64,000 bases of DNA from positions 10,707 through 74,706 of the forward strand of contig JADFMY010000001.1 in the NCBI GenBank assembly GCA_022563685.1. Reading direction: 5' to 3'. The stretch comes from Pseudomonadota bacterium (lineage in GTDB: Bacteria; Pseudomonadota; Gammaproteobacteria; GCA-001735895). Of this stretch, positions 1,125 through 25,494 are shown one piece after another (the stretch's first letter is position 1; each line of letters opens with the position of its first letter). The notes beneath the pieces were generated by a model. It worked only from the letters and a program-made list of their open reading frames with translations. It did not search any database and was not told where the DNA came from. A program made the position numbers and the translations under genes.

Positions 1125-2537
1125 TCAATTGACCAGCGCTTCATCTTCTTCGAATTCGATATCTTCGTGATCGGAGCCACTCGGGTCTATGAGCTTGTGC
1201 TGCTTGATAATGCGTCTCAATCGGGGGCGTGATATGCCCAGAATTTTGCAGGTTTCACCCTTGTGCCAGCCAGTCGAATTTAACACTCTCGATACATGGC
1301 ACTTTTCCATTTCGTCGAGACTGGTTTGTATCGGCATGGTCGAGTCAAATTCGGTCTGCGGGCAGGCACTAATGTATTCAGGGATTAGATCGAGGGTTAT
1401 GGTTTCAGCCGGTGACAGGGCCACTGCCTTGGTTAACACATTTTCCAGTTCACGAATATTCCCCGGCCAATGGTAGCTATGGAATGCACTGATTACTTCG
1501 ACGGATAAGTGGCTGATACTCTTGTGCATTTCCCGATTGATGCGACAGAGCAGGGTTTGCATCAAGTCCATCAAATCCTCCTTGCGATCGCGCAATGGTG
1601 GAATGCCTATGTTGACTACCTGCAACCTGTAGTACAAATCTTCCCTGAACAGACCTAGTTTAACTTTCTCCTGAAGGTCATTATTGGTCGCTGCTATTAT
1701 TCTCGCATTGGATTTAAAAACCGTGGAGCTACCGACCGGCGTGTATTCCTTTTCCTGGATCACACGGAGTATTTTGGCCTGTATAGCAGGTGACAGCTCA
1801 CCCACTTCGTCCAGAAACAGCGTGCCATTTTCCGCCATTGCGAACTTCCCATGATGCCTCTTAACGGCACCTGTAAAGGCGCCCTTTTCATGCCCGAACA
1901 ACTCTGATTCAAGCAGGGTTTCGATCAGGGCCGCGCAATTTACCGCTACGTAGGGGCCCTCGGAAATATGACTCGATTCGTGTATTGCGCGCGCTACCAG
2001 CTCCTTACCGGTGCCACTCTCGCCAGTGACCAGGACATTGATAGGCTTATCGGCTACCAGGCCGATGGTTTTATAAATTTCACGCATCGCCGGGCTATGG
2101 CCAGCCATTCTGAAGTGTTTGTTTTTATTCTGGTTAGCGTCATCTGTGCTGATCGGTACATTAGTGTGTTCTTCATCTGTACGGATAAGCGCTCGCTCAA
2201 CGGCCTGGTCCAGTTCGTTGATATCGACCGGTTTGTGGATATAGTCATCGGCGCCATTTTTCATCGCCTTGATGGTTGATTCCATATCATGATAAGCGGT
2301 AATCATGATAATCGGCACCTCAGGCACCACCTCGTGAAAATCGGTTAAACCTTCGAGACCTGATTTACTGGGCATTTTTAGATCGAGTAAAATCAGGTCT
2401 ATATCGTTGGATGCAGCCGCTAGCAGGCCATCATTGACGCTATGGGTGGTAATCACAGTATGCGACTGACTGCTGTAATGCAATTGCAGGGTTCTGCAAA
2501 TTGCAACATCGTCATCAACAATTAACAGGGTACTCAT
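1125..2537 (-). CDS. sigma-54-dependent response regulator (NtrC family bEBP)
   Basis: Receiver domain (LLIVDDD..., DLILLDLKMP). AAA+ core with Walker A GESGTGKE and the sigma-54 contact loop GAFTGA. C-terminal Fis-type HTH (ETCKILGISRPRLRRIIK). Confidence 0.9.
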   Translation of the reverse strand: MSTLLIVDDDVAICRTLQLHYSSQSHTVITTHSVNDGLLAAASNDIDLILLDLKMPSKSGLEGLTDFHEVVPEVPIIMITAYHDMESTIKAMKNGADDYIHKPVDINELDQAVERALIRTDEEHTNVPISTDDANQNKNKHFRMAGHSPAMREIYKTIGLVADKPINVLVTGESGTGKELVARAIHESSHISEGPYVAVNCAALIETLLESELFGHEKGAFTGAVKRHHGKFAMAENGTLFLDEVGELSPAIQAKILRVIQEKEYTPVGSSTVFKSNARIIAATNNDLQEKVKLGLFREDLYYRLQVVNIGIPPLRDRKEDLMDLMQTLLCRINREMHKSISHLSVEVISAFHSYHWPGNIRELENVLTKAVALSPAETITLDLIPEYISACPQTEFDSTMPIQTSLDEMEKCHVSRVLNSTGWHKGETCKILGISRPRLRRIIKQHKLIDPSGSDHEDIEFEEDEALVN

Positions 2538-2655
2538 TCTATACTTTGCCTCCCGTCTCCCGGCTTTTCACATCAGGCAATCCAGGCCATCATACTCTAC
2601 GTAAAACAGATAACTAGTGAGCTGGATCAATATTTCGCCTGGATCTGTATTCGAT

Positions 2656-5592
2656 TCACGAGACCAGGCCCAGTTTAACTATCGCTATACAACCACCATT
2701 TTCGCCCGCCTGTAACTGCAATTTACCCTGTTGCAATTCGACGAATCGCTTGGCGATAGCGAGTCCCAGTCCGGTACCTTTCGACCGACCGGTATAGAAA
2801 GGCTCGAATAATTCATCCACCGTATCTATATCTATACCGCAACCATTATCTTCGATGGCGATATTGATGGCAGAATTTTCATCACCCAGTTCCAGCCGCA
2901 CAGATATATTGATAATCGGCCTGACATCTTCGAGGGTTTCCACAGACTGTATTGCGTTTGCGAGTAAATTGGATATCACCTGGCGTAGTTTTCTGGAATC
3001 CGCATTGATCAAAGGCAGGCCCTTTTCGAACCAGGTATTGATGGTTGCACCGGATGCATTAATTTCCTTTTGAACAATACTGATGCTGTGCTCGATTAGA
3101 TTTTTTGTATCTATCCATTCCAGATTGACCGCATCCGGGCGTGAATAGCTCATCAGATCGGCGAGTATATCTTCCATATAATGTACTTGCTCAAGCGCTA
3201 TCTGATTAAGCTCGATGGCATTTTTCTGACTCAGTTTACTAGACTGCTTTTGAAAAATCTGTAATCCCATCTTGATCGACGAGAGCGGATTGCGCAGGTC
3301 GTGGGCAATCACATTTGCCATTTTCCCCACCGTATTAAAAGCCTGATTACGGCTTATTTCCTCGTTACGCTGCATTAACTCATTTTCGAGCTGGTGTCTT
3401 ATGGTCAGGTCTATGACCGCCGAAATATTCAATTCCCCCTCTAGACTGGGCGCCGAGCTAACGCCGATTTCAACTGGAAATACTTCTCCGGATTTTTTAT
3501 GAGCCAGAAAATCTCTCCCCTGCTCCGCACTTATGCCTGTACTTTCGATCGTGCTATCGGATTGCACCAACAATCTTTGTTGCGATACTTCGTCTGGAAT
3601 CACAAGGTGAATATCCTTGCCGACCAACTCACTCTCCTGGTAACCAAACATTTTCAGCAAGTGGTCGTTGACGAGCAGAATTTCACCGTCGCCGTTCGAC
3701 ATAACCATCGCCACGGGAGCCGAGTTGAAACAGTGCTTGAAGCGTTCTTCGAGCATTTTCTGCTCGGTGATATCTTCCTTTACCGCGAGGAAGTGGGTTA
3801 TTTCTCCTTCAGAATTTCGGATACCTGAAATAGACGCCGACTCCCAGTAAAGTTCGCCACTTTTCTTACGGTTGTGAAATATGCCGCGCCAGGTTTTTCC
3901 TTGCTTAACTTTACGCCATAAGTTGGAATATTCTTCATCACTGGTTTCACCGGATTTGAGGATGCGGGGGGTAAGACCTTTGACCTCTTCCAGACTGTAA
4001 CCCGTCAAGCTTTCGAATTTTGGATTAACATACTCAATCAGGCCCTCTTTGTCGGTAAGAACGACCGAGGCAGGACTTTGTTCCACTGCTTCGGATAAAT
4101 GTCGTACACGCATTTCATTCTCTCGATATTGGGTAATATCTTCACCGATAAATATCAACCCAACATCTTCTCCCTCGGAATTGGTCAGGAAGGTATCGTG
4201 CCAGCGGATTAGATACTCGCGTTTTAAACGATCCTGTAACCAGCTTTCATGCGTTGTTGTGTCTTTGCGCCGTTGGATAGCCTGTTCGAAAAATTCGCTG
4301 CAAGCATCTTTAAACTGGTTAGCAACGAGTGTTTCTATCCAGTGCTTACCCAGCAGTTGCGCCCTTTGCCAGCCCAGTAAATTGAGCAGGGCATTATTAC
4401 AGAAGGTAATATTGCCCTGCATATCCACGGCCAGGATATTAACCTCGATGGACTCAAATACTCTTCGGAAATATTGCTCGGACTCGATATCAATCTCTGC
4501 CATCTGATGACTGGCTCTAAAACGCGCAATGATATGCCCACCGATCAGGAATACTAAAAACACAATCAGGTAGAAGAGCCAGTTGCCGCGAAAAAAATCC
4601 TTTCCCAGTGTATTGAGTTCGGCGGGCGTAATATGGGCGACCAGGCTCCAGGGTCGATTGAAAAATTCGGGTCTGGCCTGAGACGTATCATAATCTTTAC
4701 TCAAACCGGTTATTTCAATGCCGGGAAAAACGGTGTTATAACTGAACAAACCGTTAGGACTACTAAACTGACCCGATTCAGAGGTAGATATCCGCTCCCA
4801 CTCGTTTTCATAGTCGGTGGCGAATGTATATTCATGGTCCAGCATAAAACCCCATTCCAAATCACGGTTAAAGTGGCTTAACCAGTAACCTTCGTGGTTC
4901 AACAACATAACGCGATTAGAAATATTTGAGGTTGCGGCACGGAAATTGTTAAGTAATCGATTACCCAGATAATTAAGAATCAGCACGCCGACCCTGATTC
5001 CGGAAGAATTAAATACTGGCGTTCCAAAACGTATCACCGGCTTTATTGGTATCTGAATCCTTCCGTGTTCGACATTGAGATCAAAAGGTGAAATATAGAT
5101 TTCATTTCTATCGAGTTCCAACGCCTCCCGAAAATAGTATCTTTGCGCCTTGTGCTGCAGGTAGGCTTCTTCGACGATAATGGATTTACCATCACGATTG
5201 TTAATGCGTATCACTTCCTGACCGTTTATATCGATCAGGCGAATTTGATCGTAGATTATTTTTTCACGGGAAAATAACGCCAGGTCTCGCGCCAGAATGG
5301 CAAGTGTCTGCGCATCAAGATGATCAAAGTACCCATGTAACTCAGCCTGCCTGGCGAGAAAACTAACATCGGACTGAATATTGGTAAGCTCGGTAACAAT
5401 CGCAGTTTTACCCAGTTCCAGATTGAGTAACTCCTGATCATTGCGCTTCGATGTTTCAGCCGAAATATAGCTGTTGTAATGAACTGCCAGGATCGCCAGC
5501 AATATGACAATCGATATCGACGTATACCACAAGGTCTGCTGAAGTATGCGTTGATTTTTACTGAGGTGATGAACAGGTGTATGGCTGAGCAT
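2656..5592 (-). CDS. sensor histidine kinase with a periplasmic Cache-like domain, multiple PAS domains, HisKA and HATPase_c
   Basis: 978 aa. Two TM segments flank a ~300-aa extracytoplasmic domain. These are followed by repeated PAS-like blocks, an H-box (AHDLRNPLSSI) and G-boxes (DNGCGI, GTGLGLAI). Confidence 0.9.
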   Translation of the reverse strand: MLSHTPVHHLSKNQRILQQTLWYTSISIVILLAILAVHYNSYISAETSKRNDQELLNLELGKTAIVTELTNIQSDVSFLARQAELHGYFDHLDAQTLAILARDLALFSREKIIYDQIRLIDINGQEVIRINNRDGKSIIVEEAYLQHKAQRYYFREALELDRNEIYISPFDLNVEHGRIQIPIKPVIRFGTPVFNSSGIRVGVLILNYLGNRLLNNFRAATSNISNRVMLLNHEGYWLSHFNRDLEWGFMLDHEYTFATDYENEWERISTSESGQFSSPNGLFSYNTVFPGIEITGLSKDYDTSQARPEFFNRPWSLVAHITPAELNTLGKDFFRGNWLFYLIVFLVFLIGGHIIARFRASHQMAEIDIESEQYFRRVFESIEVNILAVDMQGNITFCNNALLNLLGWQRAQLLGKHWIETLVANQFKDACSEFFEQAIQRRKDTTTHESWLQDRLKREYLIRWHDTFLTNSEGEDVGLIFIGEDITQYRENEMRVRHLSEAVEQSPASVVLTDKEGLIEYVNPKFESLTGYSLEEVKGLTPRILKSGETSDEEYSNLWRKVKQGKTWRGIFHNRKKSGELYWESASISGIRNSEGEITHFLAVKEDITEQKMLEERFKHCFNSAPVAMVMSNGDGEILLVNDHLLKMFGYQESELVGKDIHLVIPDEVSQQRLLVQSDSTIESTGISAEQGRDFLAHKKSGEVFPVEIGVSSAPSLEGELNISAVIDLTIRHQLENELMQRNEEISRNQAFNTVGKMANVIAHDLRNPLSSIKMGLQIFQKQSSKLSQKNAIELNQIALEQVHYMEDILADLMSYSRPDAVNLEWIDTKNLIEHSISIVQKEINASGATINTWFEKGLPLINADSRKLRQVISNLLANAIQSVETLEDVRPIINISVRLELGDENSAINIAIEDNGCGIDIDTVDELFEPFYTGRSKGTGLGLAIAKRFVELQQGKLQLQAGENGGCIAIVKLGLVS

Positions 5593-5601: not shown

Positions 5602-5934
5602 TCAGCCACATTGAGTTAGCATCAAATAGCGTAGCCGTTGCAGATAATCCGCCCTGGTCTCGCCGGCCTGCTTTGGATGAAGAAACAGCAGTTTAGCCGC
5701 GATCATAGTTTGCCGTCGCGCTTCGTGATCTATGGTCGCAGATTGATCCATTAACATTTGCAGGTTTGTCAGTGCCCTTTCGGGGTTCTTGCAATAGCGC
5801 GGAAAACTGATGTTATGCGCATACCATTGCGACATCAAAGAGATCGACAACAATGCCAGCATTACCGGGATTATAATTTTCCATGGGTTAAATCGTGGTG
5901 ACGCCGATTCGGACTGACTGGAGGAATTATTCAT
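5602..5934 (-). CDS. hypothetical single-pass membrane protein
   Basis: 110-aa ORF with one TM helix (WKIIIPVMLALLSISLM). It has a 4-nt overlap with the upstream gene and lies 9 nt before the kinase gene. I recognise no family. Confidence 0.5.
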   Translation of the reverse strand: MNNSSSQSESASPRFNPWKIIIPVMLALLSISLMSQWYAHNISFPRYCKNPERALTNLQMLMDQSATIDHEARRQTMIAAKLLFLHPKQAGETRADYLQRLRYLMLTQCG

Positions 5935-7355
5935 ACCCGGTTCAGAACTTCATCAGCATTGGTCCAGACATAAGCAGGTCTGGATGTCGTCCCTTCAGTC
6001 ATCCTGGTACTTATCTGGTCGGCTACGGTTTTAGCCTGAATGATACGATCTCTAATCGAAATACCCTGCAGGTAGTTGGCGACAAAATGCAGGCCGTCAC
6101 AGCGGCCCTCGTACCGGTTAATCGCCTGGGTTAATCGATGGTAGTTACCGTGATAAAGCGGAAGCCCCTGATGATGCCGATTAATCCTGATCATCTCGGG
6201 CGAGCCCTTAAGTCCGCAAAGGTTTTGTAATGCACGCAGGGTTTGATCGACTAAAACACGGTCTGGATTTTTCAGTGCATCCGCCTGACAGGCGCCGCCG
6301 ATAAAGTTACTGGTGAGCAGTTTTCCTTCGGGTGCCCGATTCGCGATCAGGTTGCTTATCCATAAACTGCCCCGAATGGGTGTTTTTTCACGGCTTGGCA
6401 CCAGGAAACCGCTACCATCCAGTGGTTTGCTAAATGCGCCCCTGTCGAAACCGAGATGAATCTGGGCTATCGGGGCATATTCGATTTGATTCAACAGTGC
6501 GGATAATTTCGGATGGATCGGTTTCAACAATTTGCAGGCGATGTTAGCGGGTGTTGAAAATATGACGTGGCGGGTTTGGTATTGCAATTCAGTAGTGTTA
6601 TCACTAGCAGTCACCCGCCAACCAGATTTTAGCGGTTCGAGGGCGATTACCTGTTGCCCGGTATGAATCTCAGCAAGTGGGTTTTCAGCCAGGGTATCAA
6701 CCAGTGTTTTCATACCACCGGAAAAACTGAATGCTTCCTGTGGCAAGCCTCTTTTTCCAGGTAATAGTTTTTTGATTAACACGCCTGCGGTAATACTACC
6801 AAACTCGTTTTCCAAAGCGGTCAGGCGCGGCAAGGTGGAACGTGCGCAGGCTTTTTCAGGATCACAGGCGAGCACCGCAGAAACATAGGGATCGATCGCC
6901 AGGTCGAGTATCTCCTGCCCTAGCCTGCGTCGAATGAACGCGGCGACGCTCTCCCACTCTGATCGTCGGCAGCACCTGAAGGCCTCGGTGATCATTTGAA
7001 TCCGGGTTTTAAACGAAAACAAATCCGAGCACAGCATCTCCCTGATATTGACTGGCACCTCGGCTAATTCACTATTTTTAAGCACATAACGTTTGGCAAC
7101 CGGATTACGGTTTACCCGATGCTTCTGCAGGCCGGATTCGCTAATAAACCGACTCACGGCTGAGTCAAAGTTAAGAATCATCGAGGCGGCATGATCGGTC
7201 AAATATCCATCCTGATCGGTGCTGTCGATCAATCCTCCGCTACGCTTTGCCTGTTCGAGCAAGATAGAATGTATGCCATGTTGCGACAACCACCAGGCCG
7301 ATGACAAACCCGATATGCCAGCTCCGATAATCAATACACTGCTTTGTCGGGTCAT
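5931..7355 (-). CDS. HemY/CgoX-type FAD-dependent (copro/proto)porphyrinogen oxidase-like protein
   Basis: N-terminal dinucleotide fold VLIIGAGISGLSSAWWL...LLEQAKRSGG. It is collinear with Bacillus HemY to the C-terminus (GSGFLVP..., APEGK.LL, SPEMIRINRHHQGLPLYHGNY, GLHFVANYLQGISIRDRI). Confidence 0.8.
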   Translation of the reverse strand: MTRQSSVLIIGAGISGLSSAWWLSQHGIHSILLEQAKRSGGLIDSTDQDGYLTDHAASMILNFDSAVSRFISESGLQKHRVNRNPVAKRYVLKNSELAEVPVNIREMLCSDLFSFKTRIQMITEAFRCCRRSEWESVAAFIRRRLGQEILDLAIDPYVSAVLACDPEKACARSTLPRLTALENEFGSITAGVLIKKLLPGKRGLPQEAFSFSGGMKTLVDTLAENPLAEIHTGQQVIALEPLKSGWRVTASDNTTELQYQTRHVIFSTPANIACKLLKPIHPKLSALLNQIEYAPIAQIHLGFDRGAFSKPLDGSGFLVPSREKTPIRGSLWISNLIANRAPEGKLLTSNFIGGACQADALKNPDRVLVDQTLRALQNLCGLKGSPEMIRINRHHQGLPLYHGNYHRLTQAINRYEGRCDGLHFVANYLQGISIRDRIIQAKTVADQISTRMTEGTTSRPAYVWTNADEVLNRV

Positions 7356-8635
7356 GGTTCAAGCCCGCCTGATGGTGGGCGTTTCCAGGGCAGGTCGTCA
7401 CCAAAACGCCTGGCCGATAACTGTTGCATATGCTCGACAGTGATTAATTGTTCACCCAGATCAATTACATACGATTCGGTTCTTTTTTTAATCATCGCGC
7501 GCAAAAAGCCGGGGATGCGACCGAGTCTTTTATGCGCCTCGTCGGACCATACCAGGTCAGCACCGGCAAAATCGGTAACAGGCTGGATTACGTCTTTACC
7601 TTGCGGCAGATAATCGCAGGATGCGTCTTCATCCATGATATGCCCTCCCGCTGCCAGTGGTCTCGCACGGCAGCCGCCGCAGAGTTTTCGAAATTCGCAA
7701 TAACCGCATTTACCGGTCAATTGTGGGTTGCGTAAGGATAGAAAATCGGGCGCGGTAGTCCAGATTGAGTGAAAATCCTGTTGGCGAATATTACCGACAC
7801 TTTGCTCAATATACGGACAGGCAGTCACCTCTCCTTCGGGCGTTACACGGCAATAATGGCTGCCGGCGATACAGCCATCACCTTCCATACCACTGATCCG
7901 ATTCAGCGCCGAATCAGGAGCCATCTGCCAGGCTATGCGCTTGAAATAGGGAGCGCAGCGGGGCCGAATAATCAAATCATCGTATTGTTGCTGCAACTGA
8001 ATTATTTTTTTTATGCTCGCTTCATAATGATGCGCAGAGATGTCGCCGACCGATTCTGCGCGTCCGGTACATATAATAAAAAAGAAATTGACCACCCTGG
8101 CCCCGGACAGCCTGGCAAACAAAACGATATCCTTGATCTCGTGATAATTGTTATCGGTAATGGAAAAATGTATTTGGAAATCGAGCCCATGCTTCCGGCA
8201 ATGCTCGATACCTGTCATAGTTTTATGCCAGCTACCGGGCTTACCTCTAAAGGCATCATGACGCGACGCATCCAGCGAATCGACGCTAATGCCTATGCCC
8301 ATTGCCCCGGCATTTTTCAGTGACACGACGCGTCGTTCGGTCAGCAAGGCGCCATTGCTACCGATCACCAACATCAGGCCCAATTGCTTGCCATGGCTGC
8401 AAATCGCTTCCAGATCCTTCCTGATGAGGGGTTCCCCGCCGGTTAGTACCACCATGGTTTGATCGTGATGCAGCGCTATCTGGTCGAGCAGACCTTTCAC
8501 TTCGTCGGTGGTTAATTCGTTGGGTGACGGTGTTGTTAAGTCATCGGCGTCGAGATAACAGTGCGCACAGGCCAGATTACACCTGCGGGTTAGATTAATC
8601 GCGATAATCTGGAGTTGATCTGAATCCGCAACCAT
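7352..8635 (-). CDS. radical SAM/SPASM enzyme of the AhbC/AhbD/NirJ type with a C-terminal PCP_red-like domain
   Basis: CxxxCxxC motif CNLACAHC. FFFIICTGRA block as in haem-modifying radical SAM enzymes. Cys-rich SPASM region (CPYIEQ..., CGYCEFRKLCGGCRARP). The tail VWSDEAHKRLGRIPGFLRAMIKKRTESYV resembles the BchB/ChlB C-terminal domain. Confidence 0.8.
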   Translation of the reverse strand: MVADSDQLQIIAINLTRRCNLACAHCYLDADDLTTPSPNELTTDEVKGLLDQIALHHDQTMVVLTGGEPLIRKDLEAICSHGKQLGLMLVIGSNGALLTERRVVSLKNAGAMGIGISVDSLDASRHDAFRGKPGSWHKTMTGIEHCRKHGLDFQIHFSITDNNYHEIKDIVLFARLSGARVVNFFFIICTGRAESVGDISAHHYEASIKKIIQLQQQYDDLIIRPRCAPYFKRIAWQMAPDSALNRISGMEGDGCIAGSHYCRVTPEGEVTACPYIEQSVGNIRQQDFHSIWTTAPDFLSLRNPQLTGKCGYCEFRKLCGGCRARPLAAGGHIMDEDASCDYLPQGKDVIQPVTDFAGADLVWSDEAHKRLGRIPGFLRAMIKKRTESYVIDLGEQLITVEHMQQLSARRFGDDLPWKRPPSGGLEP

Positions 8636-8643
8636 AGCGTGGT

Positions 8644-10812
8644 TCAGCTAGTATTTCTGGGGTCGTCTGGGTCGAGATGAAACTGTCCGTTTTGCATCCA
8701 TTTATCTTTAACCTGGTCAACAGTATGCGCTGTAATTTCCTGCTGCTTATGTTGCCTGGCCCAGGTTTCAATTTCCTGAATCAGCATGCCGCGAATCATC
8801 TTCGGCGCCCTGGCTATTTTATCCCTGGCAGCCGCTTGCCAGTTGAGCGATTCCTGCACTTTGTCCGAACCCTTTCGAAAGACTGTCATGATGTTTTTAA
8901 CAAACTCTACGTCGATAGACTGTAAGCCCGTTTTTCGGGCTATGGTTTCCATGGCATTAATGCCCATGTCCCGGCAGTAACCCTCGGGAATATTATCCAG
9001 CAGTTTTTTGGAACCCGGCTCCCATACCATTGCTGTATCCTCACCCACATCTGCTGTATCCTCACCCGCATCATCAGCCAGAGCCCTACCGGCAAACGGA
9101 CATTTACTCGCTTTAGGCGCGGGTTTTTCTCCACTCCTGACCTGCTCTTCCATTTCAAGGCGGGCAATTTCGAGTCCCTTTTCTACCACTTCCAGCGAGA
9201 TATTATGAGTGTTGGTTTTGATTGCATAATTTTCGATATTCTTTTTCGCCGTATCGCGCATAAATCCCTCTGGAGCCCGCATTAACCTCGCGATAGCTGC
9301 AGCCTCCCAGTGTAATTCCTGAACCTCGGTGGTTTCATCGCCGGATTCTCTGGTTTGCGTAAAGGGCTGTATATGCTGCACCTCAACTTGCCAGGTTTTA
9401 TCGGCGCGCGCCTTTTTTTCCGCGCGGCCCTTGAGATTCTCTCGCAGCGAGGGGTCGTTTACCGATTGCAATAGAACCTCCGCTGCGTCGCTCCAGACCA
9501 TAACTTGAGAGGTCACGGATTTTTTCAGTTCTCCACGATCGGCCGCATCTACGATTTCCTGCAGCGCATTTTCAGCATTACCCGGCATCAGTTCCGCGGT
9601 TGCCGCCTCGACGATACTTTCAGTGATTACCGTGTGACCCTTTTCATGGGCGTATCGTAAAATTGCCATCCTGGCCATCGGGCGCACAAAATCGGGCACC
9701 CTGAGCATGCGTTTTTCTGCTTCAACCGACCAGGAAGTGGTCGTTGCAGCGATACGATCGATACGCGGCTGGTGCTCCTGCATACTCAGCAAAATCGCAC
9801 AATTGACATTACGCAGCAAGTTTTCGGCGTTGCCGCCGATGTCGAGCTCAGGGTCGGCGTGGACACCCATTTTGCCAATGACCAGTAACGAGGGGTTTAT
9901 TTCGGCGACATATTTTTCAATCGCATCGTAGGCTTTACCATCCAGCAATCGGGTTTCAATTTCTACATCATAGTCCTGTGCTATCGATTGAGCGACATCC
10001 AGATGTCCCTGATATATCTTTGCGAGCCCCGAATCGATGATATCTTCATGCAGCTTTTCCTGCTCTTTGAACTTGAACACTTTTTCGGCCTCTTCGGATA
10101 GCACCTCGGCTATGCGGTTAAACGCCACATAGTGGTAATAAGGGTCAAACGTGGCGATGACTTTTATCTCGACCTGCCACTGTTTCGCCAGTGAAAATGC
10201 CGTGAGCAAAGCGCCGTATGACTTGCTCGAACCATCCAGCGCAACGACAATGGGGCCTTCACTGAGCTTACGCTGCGGCTGCTTGATAACCAGCGTATCG
10301 ATATTGCTGCGGCGTACAGTCCTGCCGCAAACGGTGCCGATACGACTACCCTCGATGGCGCCAACCCCAATCGATCCCATCACCAGCAAATCGTAAGTAC
10401 CGTTATTGGCCTCACCCACCAGGGCGCGGTAATTTTTGCCCTCAAGCGATGACCGGTGGAAATCTAATTCCTGCTGCTGACATAGCCTGTCGATCTGATC
10501 CAGATACGATTCGGTAATAATCGACAGGCCGCGCGTGATTAATTCGTTGTGTACCTCGCGCTGATGTTCGAGTTCCTGCTCTACCCGGTATTGCTCGGGT
10601 AAACCACCTTCCATCTGCCGAAAACGTAAATCGTGCATCTTCGCCGCATAGGCATGGGTACCCGTGATTTTGCTACCCCAGTATTGAGCCAACCTGACGG
10701 CTTCTTCGACTGCCTGGTTGGAGTGATCGGAAGAATCGACTGCCACCAGTATTGACTGGTATTGCGTTAACGGATCAAGTGACTTCTTCGGTTGTTGAGC
10801 GATTGCAGTCAT
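8644..10812 (-). CDS. multidomain protein: two universal stress protein (USP) domains followed by five PCP_red-like repeats
   Basis: ORF 8644..10947, trimmed to the ATG at 10812 (MTAIAQQPKK). USP blocks are ILVAVDSSDHS...LLVMGSIGVG and IVVALDGSSKS...LLVIGKMGVH. Five repeats of W-x2-x-A-x3-L-x2-P-x-(F/M)-(V/M/C)R...E..A follow. Confidence 0.75.
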   Translation of the reverse strand: MTAIAQQPKKSLDPLTQYQSILVAVDSSDHSNQAVEEAVRLAQYWGSKITGTHAYAAKMHDLRFRQMEGGLPEQYRVEQELEHQREVHNELITRGLSIITESYLDQIDRLCQQQELDFHRSSLEGKNYRALVGEANNGTYDLLVMGSIGVGAIEGSRIGTVCGRTVRRSNIDTLVIKQPQRKLSEGPIVVALDGSSKSYGALLTAFSLAKQWQVEIKVIATFDPYYHYVAFNRIAEVLSEEAEKVFKFKEQEKLHEDIIDSGLAKIYQGHLDVAQSIAQDYDVEIETRLLDGKAYDAIEKYVAEINPSLLVIGKMGVHADPELDIGGNAENLLRNVNCAILLSMQEHQPRIDRIAATTTSWSVEAEKRMLRVPDFVRPMARMAILRYAHEKGHTVITESIVEAATAELMPGNAENALQEIVDAADRGELKKSVTSQVMVWSDAAEVLLQSVNDPSLRENLKGRAEKKARADKTWQVEVQHIQPFTQTRESGDETTEVQELHWEAAAIARLMRAPEGFMRDTAKKNIENYAIKTNTHNISLEVVEKGLEIARLEMEEQVRSGEKPAPKASKCPFAGRALADDAGEDTADVGEDTAMVWEPGSKKLLDNIPEGYCRDMGINAMETIARKTGLQSIDVEFVKNIMTVFRKGSDKVQESLNWQAAARDKIARAPKMIRGMLIQEIETWARQHKQQEITAHTVDQVKDKWMQNGQFHLDPDDPRNTS
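9031..9072. repeat. in-frame 21-bp tandem duplication (2 units, 1 mismatch) inside the USP/PCP_red gene
   Basis: tgctgtatcctcacccacatc / tgctgtatcctcacccgcatc. These encode DAGEDTA / DVGEDTA in an acidic linker between repeats 3 and 4. Confidence 0.85.
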
Positions 10813-10992: not shown

Positions 10993-11757
10993 TTATTTTT
11001 TAAAGCTGAAATCAACGGTTTGTGTCGCACCGGCAGATACCGTGGCTTTGCCCTTCTGGGTACCGAGCGTACCATGAAAAGCCATCACTTTGTAACTGCC
11101 CGCGGGAATATTGTCGATGCTGTAAGTGCCATCTTCGGCGACCTGTGCGTAATAGGGATTCTTTGCAACGAAAATAAATCCGTGCATAAATTCATGCGCG
11201 TCGCATTCGATCTTCATTGCTACGCCACGCTTGAGTTTGACTTTTTTATTTATCGTACCTTTATCGGGCTGGCTAATATTCATCACCGTCTTTTTAGCCT
11301 TACCGATAATTTCGTAGGTATGTATGTTATGCAACACCGGGTCTTCGTTGACAATGGCGACATTGTTATCGTTATGCATTATTTGCGTGAAAGGCTGAAA
11401 TTTGCAGCCCTGTTGCAAGATTGTCGCATCCCTTTGCGAATCGTCGAAAGCCTTGCCCTGTTTGACTTTATCGAGGTAGACCACCACATCGGTGAGGCGA
11501 CCGCTATTGACCCTGACATAATCGATCGATCGATTACCCGATCCACAGACATCGTTGTCTTTGGCGATTTTAAAAACCACAGGTGCCGGAACCTGCCCCG
11601 GATAAAACACCTTGCCACTGATGCTACCACCGTCGACAACGTCGATGACTTTATATTTGGCGGCCATAGCATTCTGGCTACCAGTAATGGCCAGAATCAG
11701 GCCGCTAACAATAAAAAAATTTCTTACCACAGGAATTCCCCTTCTAGTTTCATTCAA
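10993..11757 (-). CDS. secreted cupredoxin-like protein with a C-terminal carboxypeptidase-regulatory-like beta-sandwich
   Basis: Signal peptide (FFIVSGLILAITGSQNAMA). C..H..M-type patch CDAHEFMHG. C-terminal AEDGTYSIDNIPAGSYKV...TVDFSF is typical of CarboxypepD_reg folds. ATGA overlap with the HEAT gene. Confidence 0.6.
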   Translation of the reverse strand: MNETRRGIPVVRNFFIVSGLILAITGSQNAMAAKYKVIDVVDGGSISGKVFYPGQVPAPVVFKIAKDNDVCGSGNRSIDYVRVNSGRLTDVVVYLDKVKQGKAFDDSQRDATILQQGCKFQPFTQIMHNDNNVAIVNEDPVLHNIHTYEIIGKAKKTVMNISQPDKGTINKKVKLKRGVAMKIECDAHEFMHGFIFVAKNPYYAQVAEDGTYSIDNIPAGSYKVMAFHGTLGTQKGKATVSAGATQTVDFSFKK

Positions 11758-14180
11758 TGTCTGGATGCGGATTGATCGGCTGTGAAGCGGTACATCTCTT
11801 CCAGCATTTCAATCACAAATCGTCGCTCATAACTGCTAGTCAAATCTTTTAATAGCTGAATCAGTTTTTCGGTAGCCTGAACCGGTGCGATGTCTTTCAG
11901 GATCAGTGCCATATCACGGGTTCTACCGCCCTGATTACTAACCGCAGATTTGATTATTTGTTCTATGGCCCTGTCGATCAGCTGCTGTTGCTGGTTTATT
12001 TCATCGTGCAATAGACAGCGTTTAATATTTTTTACCGCACTGTAGCGTACACCGCTCTCACTATCTTCGAGGCAATCGATTAAGCTTATGAACCACTCGC
12101 TGAGCGACGGTGGTAACTCTGGAACATGCGCATTTTTCAGCAACTCGTCGCCATCGAGCATCAAGTCTGTAATCGATTGAATAGCCTGGATCTTCAATGC
12201 CGCCCGACTATGATCGAGTGCGGTGATTAGAATCGGTATCGCAGCGCGATTGCGTATCGCTGCCAGCGCTTTCATACAGGCGAGTTTTAAATCCCATTGT
12301 TCGTTGTGGAATTGAGTCACCAGCCCTCCAAAGGCATACTCTATGCCCGGAGTTTTTGGGTTTGCGATTGCAATCTGTGCTATCGATTCAGCCGCGCAAG
12401 TGCGTAATTTGCAATCCTCGGCGTTTAACGCCGATAGCAGACTGTTGATGATGCGCGTGGATTTCTCTTCGCTTAAATGCCCCGGTAAACCGGACAGTAT
12501 TCTGGCTGCCAGACGTCGTACATCGCTTGCTACGGAGACATCTTCTTTTTGATCGAATAACCATTCGCTGCGTACAATATTATCCTGTACCAAATCACGG
12601 TATTCATCGAGCGATGGGTCGGGATCCTGATCTATTGCCGGTTCGTTATTCATCTGTTTGAGAGATTCTTCTACCTGCTGATTATCCTGCAGGATCGATT
12701 CCAGCGTCGACATTGCTTCGACAGCCTGATCATCGCTGGATTCCTGTTCCTCCGGGGTTATTTTCGCCTCTGGTTCAAGCCTGCCCGGATTTGCGCTATC
12801 GACGATTGAAGCGACTTCAATTTCCAGTACAACCCGGCCATTGAGTGTCTGGTTTACAATATCTATAGGCGTGGAGTGCGTATCTTGATCCAGGTTAACT
12901 TCGTCCAGGTTTTTCTCCAGGGACATTAAGGCCTGCAAGGTAGTGAGCCTGATGCTGCTATCATTATGGTTGATCAGGCTTGTCATAATCCGCGAAACCT
13001 TGACATTCCAGCGGCATAACTGTGCCAGAATGTCAATACAACTGGTTATAATCTGACTGGATAATTTAGGTCGCAGTATTAACTGTATGAGTTGAGCCTG
13101 GGCCTGTTCGGGGTTAGATAACTTGAGCAGCAAGGGGATTGCCGCCAGAATCACCTTTTCATTCTTATCATTCAAGGCCGACAGAATTTGGTCGCTTAGC
13201 TGATCCTGGTCGAGTTTGGTAGCGGTCGATTGCAGAGATTGCAGATAGGCCGCTCTGACATCGGCATCGGGGTCTTTCAATAGTCGTTGGCTGACGGCTA
13301 TAGGTGTGCTTTTTTCGCCCGCTATTTCCGATTTAACCATGAGGCTCAGATCGTTATATGCCAGAATGGCCGCCTGCCGCACTTTTTCTGAACGATCTTT
13401 CTTGAGTAGTTCTATCGCGCGCAGATATTGGCCTGCTTTTCGATCAACCAGTGCCTGCAGGGCGTTAAGGCGCACTTCTTCTGAACTATCGGTGAATGCA
13501 GAAGCAAGCGCCTTGAGTGATTCTGACGAATTCGAAAACGATAACTCGTGAGCCGCCCGCCGACGTGTCTGGGCTGAGGCCGACTTAAGCTGATCGATAA
13601 CAATTTGTTCACCCTCGCCACCAATACTGACCAGGGATTTTAAAATATCGTGTTCGATATCGAGCACGTCATCGCTACTCAGTAGCTGTTGTAATACTGG
13701 AGTCGCCTGCTCTGCCTTCATCTGGCCCAATGAAATAACAGCCTGACGCTGCATATCCCACCAGTCATCCCAGTCTTCGTTACTGTCGATGATCATATCT
13801 TCTGGATGGTGTTCGGCTAATTGCAGCAATACAGGAATACTTGCAGGGCTTTTGATTTCGCCCAGGGCTTTCACGATAGCGGTCTTTAATTCACCATCTG
13901 GGTCATGTTCCAGCGATTCCAGCAATTGCGGAACAACATGAAGCGCATTCAGCTTTCCAAGTGCTTCTGCGGCATCGATGCAGACATCGATGTCTTCATC
14001 CCTGAGTCTTAATACCAGGTCATCGATCGCCTCTACCGCTCCAATCGAGCCCAGTGCCCGGCTGGCATTACATTTATCCACTTCGTCTCCAGCATCGAGC
14101 AAGTCACGCAAACGATGTATGACCATAGCCTTACACTGGCTGGATGGATCGCTGGTTTGATTGTTATCTGCTACTTGCAC
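11754..14180 (-). CDS. HEAT-repeat (PBS-lyase-like) protein, 808 aa
   Basis: Repeated ~30-aa units such as ASRALGSIGAVEAIDDLVLRLRDEDIDVCIDAAEALGKL and ELKTAIVKALGEIKSPASIPVLLQL run along the whole protein. The start is GTG 14180 and is uncertain. Confidence 0.75.
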   Translation of the reverse strand: MQVADNNQTSDPSSQCKAMVIHRLRDLLDAGDEVDKCNASRALGSIGAVEAIDDLVLRLRDEDIDVCIDAAEALGKLNALHVVPQLLESLEHDPDGELKTAIVKALGEIKSPASIPVLLQLAEHHPEDMIIDSNEDWDDWWDMQRQAVISLGQMKAEQATPVLQQLLSSDDVLDIEHDILKSLVSIGGEGEQIVIDQLKSASAQTRRRAAHELSFSNSSESLKALASAFTDSSEEVRLNALQALVDRKAGQYLRAIELLKKDRSEKVRQAAILAYNDLSLMVKSEIAGEKSTPIAVSQRLLKDPDADVRAAYLQSLQSTATKLDQDQLSDQILSALNDKNEKVILAAIPLLLKLSNPEQAQAQLIQLILRPKLSSQIITSCIDILAQLCRWNVKVSRIMTSLINHNDSSIRLTTLQALMSLEKNLDEVNLDQDTHSTPIDIVNQTLNGRVVLEIEVASIVDSANPGRLEPEAKITPEEQESSDDQAVEAMSTLESILQDNQQVEESLKQMNNEPAIDQDPDPSLDEYRDLVQDNIVRSEWLFDQKEDVSVASDVRRLAARILSGLPGHLSEEKSTRIINSLLSALNAEDCKLRTCAAESIAQIAIANPKTPGIEYAFGGLVTQFHNEQWDLKLACMKALAAIRNRAAIPILITALDHSRAALKIQAIQSITDLMLDGDELLKNAHVPELPPSLSEWFISLIDCLEDSESGVRYSAVKNIKRCLLHDEINQQQQLIDRAIEQIIKSAVSNQGGRTRDMALILKDIAPVQATEKLIQLLKDLTSSYERRFVIEMLEEMYRFTADQSASRH

Positions 14181-14216
14181 TCCAGGTAAACCTCTGGCTT
14201 GTTTAGCCTAACCTAA

Positions 14217-14231
14217 GCACAAACGATGCCA
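14217..14231 (-). promoter_or_regulatory. candidate sigma-54 (-24/-12) promoter for the minus-strand operon
   Basis: The reverse complement reads TGGCATCGTTTGTGCT. GG-N10-GC spacing is correct and the -12 region is imperfect. It lies ~40 nt upstream of the HEAT gene start. Confidence 0.35.
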
Positions 14232-14563: not shown

Positions 14564-14579
14564 TGGCAGGATATTTGCA
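14564..14579 (+). promoter_or_regulatory. sigma-54 (-24/-12) promoter of the CydA-like/cytochrome c operon
   Basis: TGGCAG-gatat-TTGCA against the consensus TGGCAC-N5-TTGCA. It lies 39 nt upstream of the first micro-ORF ATG. Confidence 0.65.
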
Positions 14580-14617
14580 GAAGACCTGCAAATTTATAGT
14601 GAAGGCGGGATGTGGTC

Positions 14618-14767
14618 ATGAGTGGACAAAACGACGAGCTCGATAACGGACCGGACGATGATTCGGTCACCTGGGGCCCGATATTGTTTTACGGCACCCT
14701 CATCGCCGGGTTGGTATTTTTCTGGTGGATGGTGATCTACTCGCATGGCGTATCACCCACACACTAA
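14618..14767 (+). CDS. micro-ORF, 49-aa single-TM peptide (not in the ORF track)
   Basis: ATG preceded by gaaggcggga. MSGQNDELDNGPDDDSVTWGPILFYGTLIAGLVFFWWMVIYSHGVSPTH has an acidic head and one TM helix. It lies directly behind the sigma-54 promoter. Confidence 0.4.
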   Translation: MSGQNDELDNGPDDDSVTWGPILFYGTLIAGLVFFWWMVIYSHGVSPTH

Positions 14768-14798
14768 GCACATTTCGAAATGCTGGTAACCACCGTAT

Positions 14799-14927
14799 AT
14801 GAATAAAACGCTCACTCACTGGCTGCTGGCAGCGGTCATAGTCATCGGTCTGTTTTACGGTTTGAACCACATCGTCATGTCTATGCAAGGGTTACCGCTC
14901 AATCTGAATTTAACTCCGATACAGTAA
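14799..14927 (+). CDS. micro-ORF, 42-aa single-TM peptide (not in the ORF track)
   Basis: MNKTLTHWLLAAVIVIGLFYGLNHIVMSMQGLPLNLNLTPIQ. Its stop abuts the CydA-like ORF. Confidence 0.4.
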   Translation: MNKTLTHWLLAAVIVIGLFYGLNHIVMSMQGLPLNLNLTPIQ

Positions 14928-14982
14928 TGTGTGTCCTGAACTGGTGGATAAAGATGCACTCTGGTCTGGTGGAAATTTAACA

Positions 14983-16839
14983 ATGAGCAGAAATCCAGAC
15001 AATATCCGTAACAAATACCTGTATTTAGCCCTGTTATTGTTGTTATTTCTATCGGCGACAGCTCTCATATCACTGGCCATATCAGGCAAAGTTTACGCAA
15101 CTATAGAGACAGGTTCCACTGCAGCAGAATCTGTTGCATTGTCGGCAGAAAATGCCAGCAGCCGAATACCCTTCCCGGCGCCGAATTTAAAACGCGAAGA
15201 CTACCCGCGTATGGGTATTAGCAGCCGTTCAATTGTCTGGGTCATTGCGCAGATGCATCTGTTTTTTGCTGCGTTTGTACTCGCGGTACCAATCTTCGTT
15301 CTGGTAATCGAGTGGATTGGTGTCAGGACCGGTGACGAGCGTTACGACGATATGGCGCATGAGTGTATGAAAATCAGCATGACCGCCTACTCGATAACCG
15401 CGCTATTCGGTGGCACACTGGTATTCGCACTGTTTCTGCTGTACCCGCAATTCATGGCTTACATGATGCATGTGTTTGATTCGCAGGTACTGGTATACGC
15501 ATTTCTGTTCTTTGCCGAAAGCGCCTTCCTCTATCTCTATTACTACAGTTGGTATGCCTGTCGATACGGCAATAAAAAATGGGTTCATCTGACCCTGGGC
15601 CTGATGCTGAACATTACAGGTACCACCTTGCTACTCCTCGCCAATGCCTGGGTCACTTTTATGATGGCACCGTCGGGGGTCGATGATGCGGGCGTGGTCA
15701 CCGGCAGTATCTGGGAAATTATGCGCGGCCCGTTGTGGAACCCGATAAATTTACACCGTTTTATTGCCAATATTGCATTTGGTGGGGCGGTTATCGGCGC
15801 CTATGCGGCTTACAAGTTTCTTTCATCCACCGACCCACGCGCCAGAGCGCATTACGACTGGATGGGTTACACCGCCAACTTTATCGCCATCCTCGCATTT
15901 TTACCCTTACCGTTTGCCGGCTACTGGCTGATGGCCGAGATCTACGCCTACTCCCAGCAAATGGGAATTACCGCGATGGGCGGAATACTGGCCTGGTTGT
16001 TTATCATACAGGCGGTATTGATCGGTACTATTTTGCTGGCGGGTAATTATTATCTCTGGTCGGGTATGTCGCGTACCCTGGGATCTGAGCGTTATACCTG
16101 GATGATCAAATATATCGCCATCGTACTGGTGACCTGCTTCCTGGTCTGGGTGACGCCGCATACGCTGATTTTGAGCGCGTCCGAAATGAGGCAACTGGGC
16201 GGCAGCCGTCATTACATTCTGGGGCCGCTCGGTATCATGCCGGCGAAAAATATCGCGGTTAACCTGATGTTGATCTTCACCTTTCTGTCGTTCCAGATAT
16301 ACCGTCGTGCCGATAAGGAAGTCACCGTTAGCTGGGCCGGTTTCGGCAACACGTTGATGGTTTGCATCTATGTCGTCGCGATAGTTAACATCGTATTTGC
16401 CGGTGTGTATTACGGTTATTTCACCAATACCGTATACAAGGTCGGTTCCAGCGTCATGCAGGTAGTATCGACGCTGGTGGTTATCGGTGCTGGAATCACG
16501 ATAGATTCCCTGATGTTCAAGGGTGCTAAAAAACTACCCTCCGAATGGGGCAAGGTATCCAACCGCGCTCAATACGCGCTTTTCGCATTACCGATCACCT
16601 TTACCTGGTTGATGGCCCTGATGGGTTACGTGCGCTCGTCGGTCAGAACCAACTGGCATGTGTACACGGTGATGAAAGACAACTCCCCCGATAATTTCAT
16701 TCCCACCATCGGTTATGCCGGCAACATGATGACCCTCGTCACCGTGCTATTCCTGTTGTTTGTACTGTTTATATTCTGGATTGCCTCTTTGAGCGACAAA
16801 AAGCAACCAAAGCCAGCCTTTCTGGCCGGTGGTGATTAA
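14983..16839 (+). CDS. cytochrome bd subunit I (CydA)-like membrane protein, no CydB partner
   Basis: Matches E. coli CydA blocks: AQMHLFFAAFVLAVPIF ~ TAMYHFLFVPLTLG (His19 region), FFAESAFLYLYYYSW ~ FFLESTFVGLFFFGW (Glu99), LLLLANAWVTFMM ~ LWILVANGWMQNP, and NPINLHRFIANIAFGG ~ NPVAQVKFVHTVASGY. The ATG at 14983 with ggtgga upstream is preferred to the GTG at 14929. Confidence 0.75.
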   Translation: MSRNPDNIRNKYLYLALLLLLFLSATALISLAISGKVYATIETGSTAAESVALSAENASSRIPFPAPNLKREDYPRMGISSRSIVWVIAQMHLFFAAFVLAVPIFVLVIEWIGVRTGDERYDDMAHECMKISMTAYSITALFGGTLVFALFLLYPQFMAYMMHVFDSQVLVYAFLFFAESAFLYLYYYSWYACRYGNKKWVHLTLGLMLNITGTTLLLLANAWVTFMMAPSGVDDAGVVTGSIWEIMRGPLWNPINLHRFIANIAFGGAVIGAYAAYKFLSSTDPRARAHYDWMGYTANFIAILAFLPLPFAGYWLMAEIYAYSQQMGITAMGGILAWLFIIQAVLIGTILLAGNYYLWSGMSRTLGSERYTWMIKYIAIVLVTCFLVWVTPHTLILSASEMRQLGGSRHYILGPLGIMPAKNIAVNLMLIFTFLSFQIYRRADKEVTVSWAGFGNTLMVCIYVVAIVNIVFAGVYYGYFTNTVYKVGSSVMQVVSTLVVIGAGITIDSLMFKGAKKLPSEWGKVSNRAQYALFALPITFTWLMALMGYVRSSVRTNWHVYTVMKDNSPDNFIPTIGYAGNMMTLVTVLFLLFVLFIFWIASLSDKKQPKPAFLAGGD

Positions 16840-17714: not shown

Positions 17715-17716
17715 AG

Positions 17717-20169: not shown

Positions 20170-20319
20170 ATGACGAATCACAAGGGTATGGCAGAATTTC
20201 TGCCTTTGAATAGGGCGGTATTAACGGTTTCCGACAGTCGTGCTCGAGCCGAGGCTCCAGTCATGCGGTATCGGAAAAAGTTACCTGTTAAGGGGGCCAG
20301 TCATGAGTTGCTGTGACCA
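20170..20319 (+). pseudogene. moaB: moaB/mog-like N-terminal remnant
   Basis: The 49-codon ORF MTNHKGMAEFLPLNRAVLTVSDSRARAE... resembles the E. coli MoaB N-terminus (TEFIPTRIAILTVSNRRGEE). It then loses similarity and runs out of frame into the moeA start. Confidence 0.4.
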
Positions 20320-25479: not shown

Positions 25480-25494
25480 GTTTGGGAGTAGCTA

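Follow-up and report, generated by a model that had tools for sequence, protein, structure and literature searches.

What does a domain of protochlorophyllide reductase do in a locus that shows no trace of photosynthesis? PCP_red (PF08369) forms the C-terminal end of BchB/ChlB in dark-operative protochlorophyllide reductase (DPOR), and six copies of it occur in two adjacent minus-strand genes of a gammaproteobacterial contig (GenBank assembly GCA_022563685.1, contig JADFMY010000001.1, positions 10,707 to 74,706; these 64,000 nucleotides are referred to here as the window). Five copies follow a pair of universal stress protein (USP) domains in one protein, and the sixth ends a radical S-adenosylmethionine (SAM) protein encoded immediately downstream. 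A first-pass annotation made from the DNA alone had noticed the six peptides in what it took to be a non-phototrophic locus, and had proposed that the array of five could be a multivalent tetrapyrrole carrier or sensor. Both open reading frames (ORFs) and all six quoted peptides proved to be where it had placed them (ORF list and peptide search), and no photosynthesis gene was found among the scanned window ORFs of at least 150 residues. The six-repeat observation is confirmed and far exceeds chance.

Six PCP_red domains in two adjacent proteins

8644-10812, minus strand: USP-PCP_red gene, 722 residues, start ATG at 10812 (Pfam, two Usp domains plus PCP_red)
10282-10761, minus strand: USP domain 1, residues 18-177 (best Pfam stretch; G146-xx-G149-x9-G159-T160 motif)
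9784-10257, minus strand: USP domain 2, about residues 186-343, boundaries approximate (second Usp stretch, model secondary structure, invariant residues)
9601-9732, minus strand: PCP_red repeat 1, residues 361-404 (52.4 bits, E 5.3e-14 alone; aligns to 2KRU by sequence)
9370-9495, minus strand: PCP_red repeat 2, residues 440-481, divergent (18.7 bits, E 0.0018 alone; hhalign 95% to repeat 4)
9178-9309, minus strand: PCP_red repeat 3, residues 502-545 (38.9 bits alone; hhalign 97-99% to repeats 1 and 4)
9094-9102, minus strand: Cys571-Pro572-Phe573 in the linker between repeats 3 and 4 (conservation in alignments of 34 and 59 sequences)
8896-9024, minus strand: PCP_red repeat 4, residues 597-639 (24.7 bits, E 2.5e-5 alone; hhalign 98.8% to repeat 3)
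8707-8841, minus strand: PCP_red repeat 5, residues 658-702 (35.9 bits alone; invariant residues)
7421-7549, minus strand: sixth PCP_red module, residues 363-405 of the radical SAM protein (54.9 bits, E 8.8e-15 alone; 2KRU match E 2.6e-6)

The repeats are genuine PF08369 domains by whole-protein and single-repeat scores, profile comparison and fold. Against the Pfam gathering score of 32.5 bits, the complete USP protein scores 129.8 bits (E 3.5e-38) and the complete radical SAM protein 49.9 bits (E 3.2e-13); scanned singly, repeats 1, 3 and 5 and the radical SAM tail exceed that score and repeats 2 and 4 fall below it. The latter two are nevertheless counted as homologous because profile-profile comparison (hhalign, run on the repeat columns across 34 orthologues) links them: repeats 1, 3, 4 and 5 match one another at 97-99% probability and repeats 2 and 4 at 95%, which supports the homology of all five. 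In the orthologue alignment the opening Trp is invariant in every repeat and the loop Pro in repeats 1, 3, 4 and 5, while each repeat position keeps a conserved signature of its own. Taken as shorter stretches, repeats 1 to 5 occupy residues 361-397, 439-468, 501-530, 596-625 and 657-685 of the USP protein, and the sixth copy residues 362-390 of the radical SAM protein. Repeat 1 is the most BchB-like of the five, and repeat 5 is followed by a conserved C-terminal tail (W705, F711, H712 and D717-P-R). At the other end of the protein, the ATG at 10812 is consistent with the N-termini of 33 homologues.

Structural comparison agreed with these assignments. A model of residues 353-722 (mean predicted local distance difference test, pLDDT, 84) found as its top PDB match 2KRU, from Chlorobium BchB, and as its second 2L09, the stand-alone PCP_red protein Asr4154 of Nostoc; these are the only solved PCP_red domains, both of them determined by nuclear magnetic resonance (NMR) on the domain alone. 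Superposed on 2KRU, the repeat region shows a root mean square deviation of 1.0 Å over 51 columns (TM 0.77, 39% identity, probability 1.0). The first-pass annotation had called for superposition on the BchB C-terminal domain from DPOR crystal structures; good matches came only from the two NMR structures, and the crystal and cryo-electron microscopy (cryo-EM) chains of DPOR gave none (see below). A search with the full-length AlphaFold model (pLDDT 74), which places the tandem USP at the N-terminus, returned USP-type matches only in its top 50, 2KRU and 2L09 surfacing with the separate C-terminal model. Because the linkers between repeats are disordered in the models, residues 562-592 most of all, the modelled repeats are best pictured as beads on a string.

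The window repeats therefore share with BchB/ChlB (2KRU) and Asr4154 (2L09) the family, the strand-helix-loop(Pro)-helix-strand-helix order and the W-x2-EA...P-x-F-(V/M)-R pattern. They differ from BchB/ChlB in their setting: five copies follow a tandem USP and one a radical SAM enzyme, a nitrogenase-like catalytic domain is lacking, and the hosts are not phototrophs. Pfam detected no Oxidored_nitro domain in the USP protein, and the DPOR subunit B model (TIGR01278) gave 74.8 bits against a cutoff of 490, covering model positions 455-510 of 512 only.

The N-terminal half of the protein contains two Usp domains (Pfam, E 3.2e-31). The first carries the ATP-type motif G-2x-G-9x-G-(S/T), with G146, G149 and G159 invariant and T160 nearly so among orthologues, and is predicted to bind nucleotide; in the second the motif reads G313-xx-G316-x9-G326-G327-N328, Gly replacing Ser/Thr. 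Foldseek matched this half to the tandem USPs TTHA0350 of Thermus (ATP-bound), Rv2623 of Mycobacterium and UspE of Escherichia coli (3AB8, 3CIS and 5CB0; E 1e-13 to 1e-11), which have in common with it two USP domains and the nucleotide motif of domain 1. The earlier description of this half as a nucleotide-binding type is thereby borne out. Compared with these proteins the window protein has about 370 additional residues of PCP_red repeats and a long conserved helical insertion in each USP domain.

The insertions lie at residues 57-110 (~10483-10644) and 224-280 (~9973-10143). Their near-invariant motifs are RFRQMEGGLPE, which belongs to the conserved helical insertion of domain 1, HYVAFNRI and EQEKLHE-IIDSGLAKIY; these are kept across phyla, in regions of low model confidence, and the insertions may form a partner or ligand surface.

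The linker between repeats 3 and 4 contains C571-P-F, in which all three residues are invariant in 34 sequences; in 59 gamma- and betaproteobacterial sequences the Pro is invariant and the Cys and Phe at least 90% conserved. The K-C571-P-F linker is modelled at pLDDT below 50. We considered a haem-regulatory motif here and downgraded it, since C571-P aligns with the second Cys knuckle (CPxC) of a rubredoxin-like module in homologues from Nitrospinota, SAR324 and Manganitrophus, and the Cys-Pro motif is missing from the aligned Zetaproteobacteria homologues. Such Cys4 modules (PF21349) number one to three between the PCP_red repeats in Nitrospinota, Nitrospirota and SAR324 (homologues P0247, P0253, P0256, P0258 and P0264; loci L085-L088). 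At the corresponding site one Cys is left in the window protein, that of C571-P-F, and none in Zetaproteobacteria.

An AhbD/NirJ2-like radical SAM enzyme and a HemY-type porphyrinogen oxidase

7352-8635, minus strand: radical SAM/SPASM-PCP_red gene, 427 residues, AhbD/NirJ2-like (ORF, Pfam, NCBIfam-type model scores)
8117-8599, minus strand: radical SAM core, residues 13-173, C19-x3-C23-x2-C26 (PF04055, E 9.3e-24; motif from the translation)
7697-7873, minus strand: SPASM auxiliary Fe-S domain, residues 255-313 (PF13186, E 1.5e-7)
5931-7355, minus strand: HemY-type flavin adenine dinucleotide (FAD) porphyrinogen oxidase, 474 residues (TIGR00562, 238.4 bits against a cutoff of 97.85)

The radical SAM protein aligns end to end with NirJ2 and AhbD (307.8 and 281.8 bits; TIGR04055 and TIGR04545), with which it shares the CX3CX2C core and SPASM domain. 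These were the best radical SAM models in all lineages, at 280-330 bits over the full length, with peptide-maturase models at about 80-156 bits; the Manganitrophus and SAR324 homologues score 300-331 bits on the NirJ2 and AhbD models. The scores place the enzyme in the AhbD/NirJ clade and, read at the level of sequence, it is a related but distinct AhbD/NirJ2 subfamily, set apart by its sub-500-bit scores, by an extra PCP_red tail (one or three copies in the family) and by its constant pairing with a USP-PCP_red gene. Every characterised member of the AhbD/AhbC/NirJ clade works on haem-type tetrapyrroles, at their side chains, and the coproporphyrin haem pathway has AhbD as a known alternative for its last step (PMC7242693). 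Some homologues of the window protein have been named 'AdoMet-dependent heme synthase' by the Joint Genome Institute (JGI).

The third gene encodes a protein with NAD_binding_8 and Amino_oxidase domains (Pfam) and an IIGAGISG motif at residues 9-16, whose closest solved structure is the Myxococcus xanthus protoporphyrinogen oxidase (PPO) 2IVD (207 bits). With this enzyme and that of Bacillus subtilis (3I6D) it has in common a passing TIGR00562 score, the FAD-binding N-terminus and alignment over the full length; the window version differs in standing in a dedicated cluster with regulators of its own. The radical SAM gene starts 8 nt past the USP stop codon, and its own stop overlaps the start of the HemY-like gene by 4 nt; in Proteobacteria these two genes are translationally coupled. 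As the stops and starts of the three genes overlap or nearly abut, their spacing indicates one transcript. This context, a radical SAM enzyme of AhbD/NirJ2 type bearing the same domain beside a HemY-type oxidase, supports the link to tetrapyrroles much better than the repeats had done in the first-pass annotation.

The gene pair is conserved among chemolithotrophs

Homologues of the USP-PCP_red protein, grouped at 90% identity, make up more than 2,800 clusters; almost all of those listed are full length, at about 55-60% identity, and the only name given to any is 'universal stress protein'. At 50% identity the architecture comprises 1,744 clusters, and 457 matching stretches occur among 185,579 species-representative genomes. 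The hosts are sulfur, iron, manganese and nitrite chemolithotrophs, including Sedimenticola, Thiodiazotropha and tubeworm symbionts, Thiothrix, Parabeggiatoa, Gallionellaceae and Zetaproteobacteria; more distant homologues, at 36-47% identity, come from Nitrospinota, Nitrospira, Ca. Manganitrophus, SAR324, Binatia and Mariprofundaceae.

We compared 80 species-representative loci, taking as denominator in each case the loci with room for the neighbour in question. An AhbD/NirJ2-like radical SAM gene lies directly downstream of the USP gene in 65/65, and the HemY-type oxidase gene comes next in 57/59. Upstream, a bd-like oxidase with c-type and EB_dh haem proteins was present in 39 of 47 loci. 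The order USP gene then radical SAM-PCP_red gene also holds in Ca. Manganitrophus, Nitrospira and SAR324; in SAR324 the pair directly follows a bd-like/cytochrome c/EB_dh operon and is itself followed by a HEAT gene.

The number of PCP_red copies on each partner varies. In 66 loci the radical SAM protein is either about 420-450 residues long with one PCP_red (21 loci, the window's type) or about 670-700 residues long with three (45 loci, Sedimenticola and Gallionella among them), and separate PCP_red-only proteins occur in Manganitrophus, with four copies, and in SAR324 (L085 14205-15197; L087 8995-9921). This redistribution of modules among partner proteins argues, from gene content, that the proteins work as one unit. 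Component domains of the architecture are all known and the architecture itself is abundant in databases. Our literature searches found no publication on the architecture, the invariant gene pair or the bd-like link, in keeping with the first-pass annotation, which knew of no characterisation of the architecture.

Several smaller features of these loci were also recorded. Two of the radical SAM partner genes lie at 12376-14406 in L001 and 12201-14288 in L002. In Manganitrophus and Nitrospira a small CopD-like/DUF4149 membrane gene occupies the HemY position (L085 15213-15674; L086 13594-14121); we considered these CopD-like proteins as a HemJ replacing HemY and rejected the idea, since they match CopD and DUF4149 only, not HemJ. 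One metagenome-assembled genome (MAG; SRR21487745_binner13_Refined_35) contains two paralogous USP/radical SAM/HemY strings, L005 and L081, at 84% and 55% identity to the window. Proteobacterial-type copies on a 2.5-kb contig binned as Bathyarchaeota (L038) and on a contig binned as Haliangium (L008) are probably mis-binned.

A bd-like oxidase operon faces the cluster

14564-14579, plus strand: sigma-54-type -24/-12 element TGGCAGGATATTTGCA (one mismatch to the consensus; just 5' of the first small ORF)
14612-20128, plus strand: divergent bd-like operon (Pfam, CxxCH counts, transmembrane (TM) scan)
14612-14767 and 14799-14927, plus strand: two small TM ORFs of 51 and 42 residues (a single TM segment each; also called in Sedimenticola and Venteria)
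14929-16839, plus strand: cytochrome bd subunit I-like protein, 636 residues, about 12-14 TM segments (PF01654, E 1.6e-18)
16839-17714, plus strand: dihaem cytochrome c (Pfam, CxxCH count)
17717-20128, plus strand: trihaem cytochrome c fused to an EB_dh haem b domain (Pfam; TIGR03477 DMSO_red_II_gam, 68 bits)

The CydA-like protein aligns to helices 1-4 of Geobacillus CydA (5DOQ), shows 12 TM-like segments by hydropathy and keeps, in that alignment, the equivalents of His19 (QMHLFF) and Glu99 (FFAESAF); no CxxCH haem c motif occurs in the CydA-like protein itself. By these sequence features it belongs to the non-quinol 'bd-like' branch of the cytochrome bd superfamily. No other protein of the whole region is as well conserved: its identity is 70-86% between gammaproteobacterial orders and about 56-59% for the Gallionella-type loci.

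A cluster of 'bd-like oxidase + two cytochromes c + alternative NxrC' has been noted in Nitrospira, Nitrospina and anammox bacteria (PMC6606698). The window operon has the same make-up as the bd-like_3/alt_NxrC_2 cluster of Nitrospira and the OR-N branch (bioRxiv 10.1101/2021.01.16.426971), sharing with the Nitrospira cluster a multi-TM CydA homologue, membrane-bound cytochromes c and an EB_dh (NxrC-like) haem b protein, and differs from the Nitrospira/Nitrospina cluster in belonging to a gammaproteobacterial arsenite-oxidising autotroph. Neither publication mentions USP, radical SAM or HemY neighbours. The taxa that carry the USP-PCP_red protein (Nitrospirota, Nitrospinota, SAR324 and iron and sulfur oxidisers) overlap with those reported to have bd-like oxidases.

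An element in the position of TGGCAGGATATTTGCA is kept upstream of the bd-like gene in 4/4 of the closest relatives (L005-L008), against a background of 0.009 per 900 nt. Across the whole window sigma-54 elements are not above chance in number, and with the strict pattern the plus-strand element was not found in more distant loci; what weight the element carries comes only from its conserved position in those four relatives. A second sigma-54-type element lies at 14216-14231 on the minus strand of the same divergent intergenic region, each of the two pointing at its own operon.

A candidate tetrapyrrole-processing module

How, then, might these proteins act? What we infer most strongly is that the USP array and the AhbD-like radical SAM-PCP_red protein work as a single functional unit on a haem-type tetrapyrrole, because the characterised AhbD/AhbC/NirJ members act on such molecules, because in Proteobacteria the pair is coupled to a porphyrinogen oxidase, and because PCP_red is otherwise known only from (bacterio)chlorophyll enzymes (by model matches, the other named carriers are BchB/ChlB and BchZ). 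The haem-rich bd-like neighbour, the cluster's own regulators and the conserved sigma-54-type element facing the bd-like operon together suggest that the product serves the bd-like complex. The explanation we favour, though tentatively and at a little short of an even chance, combines the two: USP-(PCP_red)5 and radical SAM-PCP_red would be parts of one conserved tetrapyrrole (haem) processing module with its product destined for the bd-like complex. The HemY-like enzyme would oxidise the porphyrinogen stage and the radical SAM enzyme would act on a side chain of a haem precursor, by oxidative decarboxylation as in AhbD or by a related reaction. Flexibly tethered PCP_red modules might hold or pass on intermediates that are hydrophobic tetrapyrroles, or dock other proteins that hold these, under nucleotide-dependent control by the tandem USP, and the product would go to the neighbouring bd-like oxidase complex. 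The likeness of the HEAT neighbour to bilin-lyase repeats and the overlap of the hosts with taxa reported to have bd-like oxidases also speak for this explanation.

Several observations weigh against this explanation, beginning with PCP_red in DPOR itself. The first-pass annotation had reasoned from the premise that the motif closes over bound protochlorophyllide, which is doubtful. By sequence, PF08369 covers residues 475-520 of 525 in BchB and residues 480-519 of 530 and 460-507 of 511 in ChlB, outside the helix reported to contact protochlorophyllide in trans, which ends at BchB 410-415 and includes His413 (PMC12022308). No DPOR crystal or cryo-EM chain in the structure library gave a good local match to the PCP_red model; the ChlB chain of 2YNM is present there with 488 of its 530 residues, which is consistent with PCP_red not being modelled in that structure. 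With the domain off the substrate-contacting helix and unmatched by any chain, its role in DPOR is undefined, so that to speak of 'five caps' is to extrapolate. Neither 2KRU nor 2L09 has a reported ligand, and no PCP_red domain is known to bind one. Further points concern the locus: the radical SAM protein misses both equivalog cutoffs (500 bits), the cluster encodes no ferrochelatase, the Nitrospirota and SAR324 versions examined lack HemY, and 8/47 proteobacterial loci, like the Nitrospira and Manganitrophus loci examined, have no bd-like operon adjacent. The models are also unreliable in how they place the domains relative to one another (predicted template modelling score, pTM, 0.39-0.49).

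The best-surviving alternative, unlikely in our judgement yet deserving real weight, is that PCP_red modules serve protein-protein docking or oligomerisation, and that the USP protein, regulated by nucleotide, acts as a scaffold or activator that recruits the radical SAM and PCP_red-only proteins through PCP_red-PCP_red contacts, with electrons delivered in some lineages through the built-in rubredoxin-like modules. PCP_red is a small helical domain on a flexible tether, it is apparently unmodelled in DPOR structures, where the substrate-contacting helix lies elsewhere, and it is shuffled among partner proteins; distant homologues insert Cys4 rubredoxin-like modules between the repeats, whose position-specific signatures are what specific partner surfaces would be expected to show. 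However, the other named carriers are all tetrapyrrole enzymes, and the rubredoxin module has been lost in the window's clade, where one Cys is left, and wholly in Zetaproteobacteria. Docking also overlaps with the favoured processing module rather than excluding it.

Might the cluster simply supply housekeeping haem? The radical SAM and HemY-like enzymes would then be the general terminal ones of the haem pathway, either an oxygen-independent HemN/AhbD-type decarboxylase with a protoporphyrinogen oxidase or the enzymes of a coproporphyrin branch; the USP protein would regulate flux, and the proximity of the bd-like operon would be a matter of haem demand. The HemY-like protein does pass the protoporphyrinogen oxidase model, with the Myxococcus enzyme nearest, the JGI name given to some homologues points the same way, and in the Nitrospira and Manganitrophus loci the pair stands without an adjacent bd-like gene. 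The coproporphyrin pathway can, moreover, end with AhbD (PMC7242693). Yet in none of the lineages tested does the radical SAM enzyme reach either equivalog cutoff, the cluster encodes a sensor kinase and a sigma-54 regulator of its own, with a sigma-54-type promoter facing the bd-like operon in the window's clade, and the family is confined to a few hundred chemolithotroph genomes (the 457 stretches given above), one MAG having two paralogous copies. Beta- and gammaproteobacteria, furthermore, normally use HemJ or HemG, not HemY. On balance we consider a housekeeping role quite improbable.

Still less probable is a haem or redox sensor, in which USP-PCP_red would sense free tetrapyrrole or energy status, signal to the PAS kinase and sigma-54 regulator and carry nothing. 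USP domains are typically regulatory nucleotide binders, the kinase/regulator pair is conserved in the gene string, and the gamma/beta clade conserves a Cys-Pro dipeptide that looks like a haem-regulatory motif; but that dipeptide is absent in Zetaproteobacteria and aligned with the rubredoxin knuckle elsewhere, the kinase and regulator are absent from the Gallionella, Nitrospirota and SAR324 versions, whereas the radical SAM partner is always present, and five differentiated repeats exceed a sensor's needs. Finally, a peptide or protein maturase whose PCP_red domains recognise a protein substrate, such as the small membrane ORFs or the 110-residue protein described below, would fit the habit of most SPASM enzymes as peptide modifiers, the small conserved ORFs within the cluster and the matches to peptide-maturase models (about 80-156 bits), but is hardly credible given AhbD/NirJ2 scores some twofold higher with end-to-end alignment, a translationally coupled HemY-type oxidase and a domain named otherwise only in tetrapyrrole enzymes.

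Returning to the favoured processing module, there is a realistic chance that it represents a new cofactor-maturation pathway. Carried to its full extent, which we think unlikely, the proposal would be that an unrecognised pathway makes or inserts a distinct haem-type cofactor for bd-like/alternative-NxrC complexes in Nitrospira, Nitrospina, Manganitrophus, SAR324 and iron- and sulfur-oxidising Proteobacteria, with HemY taking part in Proteobacteria only, and that PCP_red is a general tethered hand-off domain for tetrapyrroles. Were this so, the hand-off role would explain why BchB/ChlB and BchZ end in PCP_red. Key respiratory roles have been proposed for the biochemically uncharacterised bd-like oxidases of bacteria that oxidise nitrite, manganese, iron and sulfur, and the conserved module of haem-type radical SAM enzyme, porphyrinogen oxidase and PCP_red arrays offers a concrete, testable route to the bd-like cofactor. 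It also gives a first functional handle on the PCP_red domain, including its place in protochlorophyllide reductase, and allows thousands of database entries called only 'universal stress protein' to be re-labelled.

Other genes of the cluster and the window

5602-5934, minus strand: 110-residue protein with one predicted TM helix and no family match (Pfam, NCBIfam, TM scan)
2656-5592, minus strand: PAS sensor histidine kinase (Pfam; conserved in 39/84 loci compared)
1125-2537, minus strand: sigma-54-dependent response regulator (Pfam; conserved in 35/84 loci compared)
10993-11757, minus strand: CarboxypepD_reg-like protein, 254 residues, with an N-terminal hydrophobic segment (Pfam, NCBIfam)
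11754-14180, minus strand: HEAT/phycobilisome (PBS)-lyase-like repeat protein, 808 residues (Pfam, NCBIfam)

In 46 of the 84 compared loci the 110-residue protein is kept downstream of HemY, and the kinase and sigma-54 regulator end the same gene string (1125-5592, minus strand). On the other side of the USP gene, among the 47 loci with upstream room, the HEAT gene is kept in 32 and the CarboxypepD_reg-like gene in 34. The HEAT protein resembles bilin-lyase repeats (NCBIfam) and scores about 60 bits against each of CpcE and NblB, below cutoff.

Elsewhere the window contains arsenite oxidase, Calvin-cycle genes, cytochromes and regulators, and from this gene content the host looks like an arsenite-oxidising autotroph. 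After the bd-like operon, 20240-26691 encodes MoeA, NnrS and two di-haem cytochrome c peroxidase/MauG-like proteins, an arrangement not kept in most related loci. The small and large subunits of arsenite oxidase (TIGR02693, 391 bits; 26688-29978) are followed by an ATP-binding cassette (ABC) transporter dependent on a periplasmic binding protein, with binding protein, permease and ATPase (30186-32770), and an AioXSR-like trio of phosphonate-binding-like protein, kinase and sigma-54 regulator lies at 50686-54445. The Calvin-cycle cluster (32844-42146) comprises a form I-like RuBisCO large subunit (NF003252, 797 bits), CbbQ, a von Willebrand factor A (VWA) CbbO-like protein, class II aldolase, phosphoribulokinase, fructose-bisphosphatase (FBPase) and a divergent LysR regulator. 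A second molybdopterin enzyme, whose best matches PhsA, DmsA and ArrA are all below cutoff, is encoded within 42256-50310 beside a 4Fe-4S subunit, a NapC/NirT-type multihaem cytochrome and a NarJ-like chaperone, and its genes are adjoined by an IS110-family transposase at 49048-50310.

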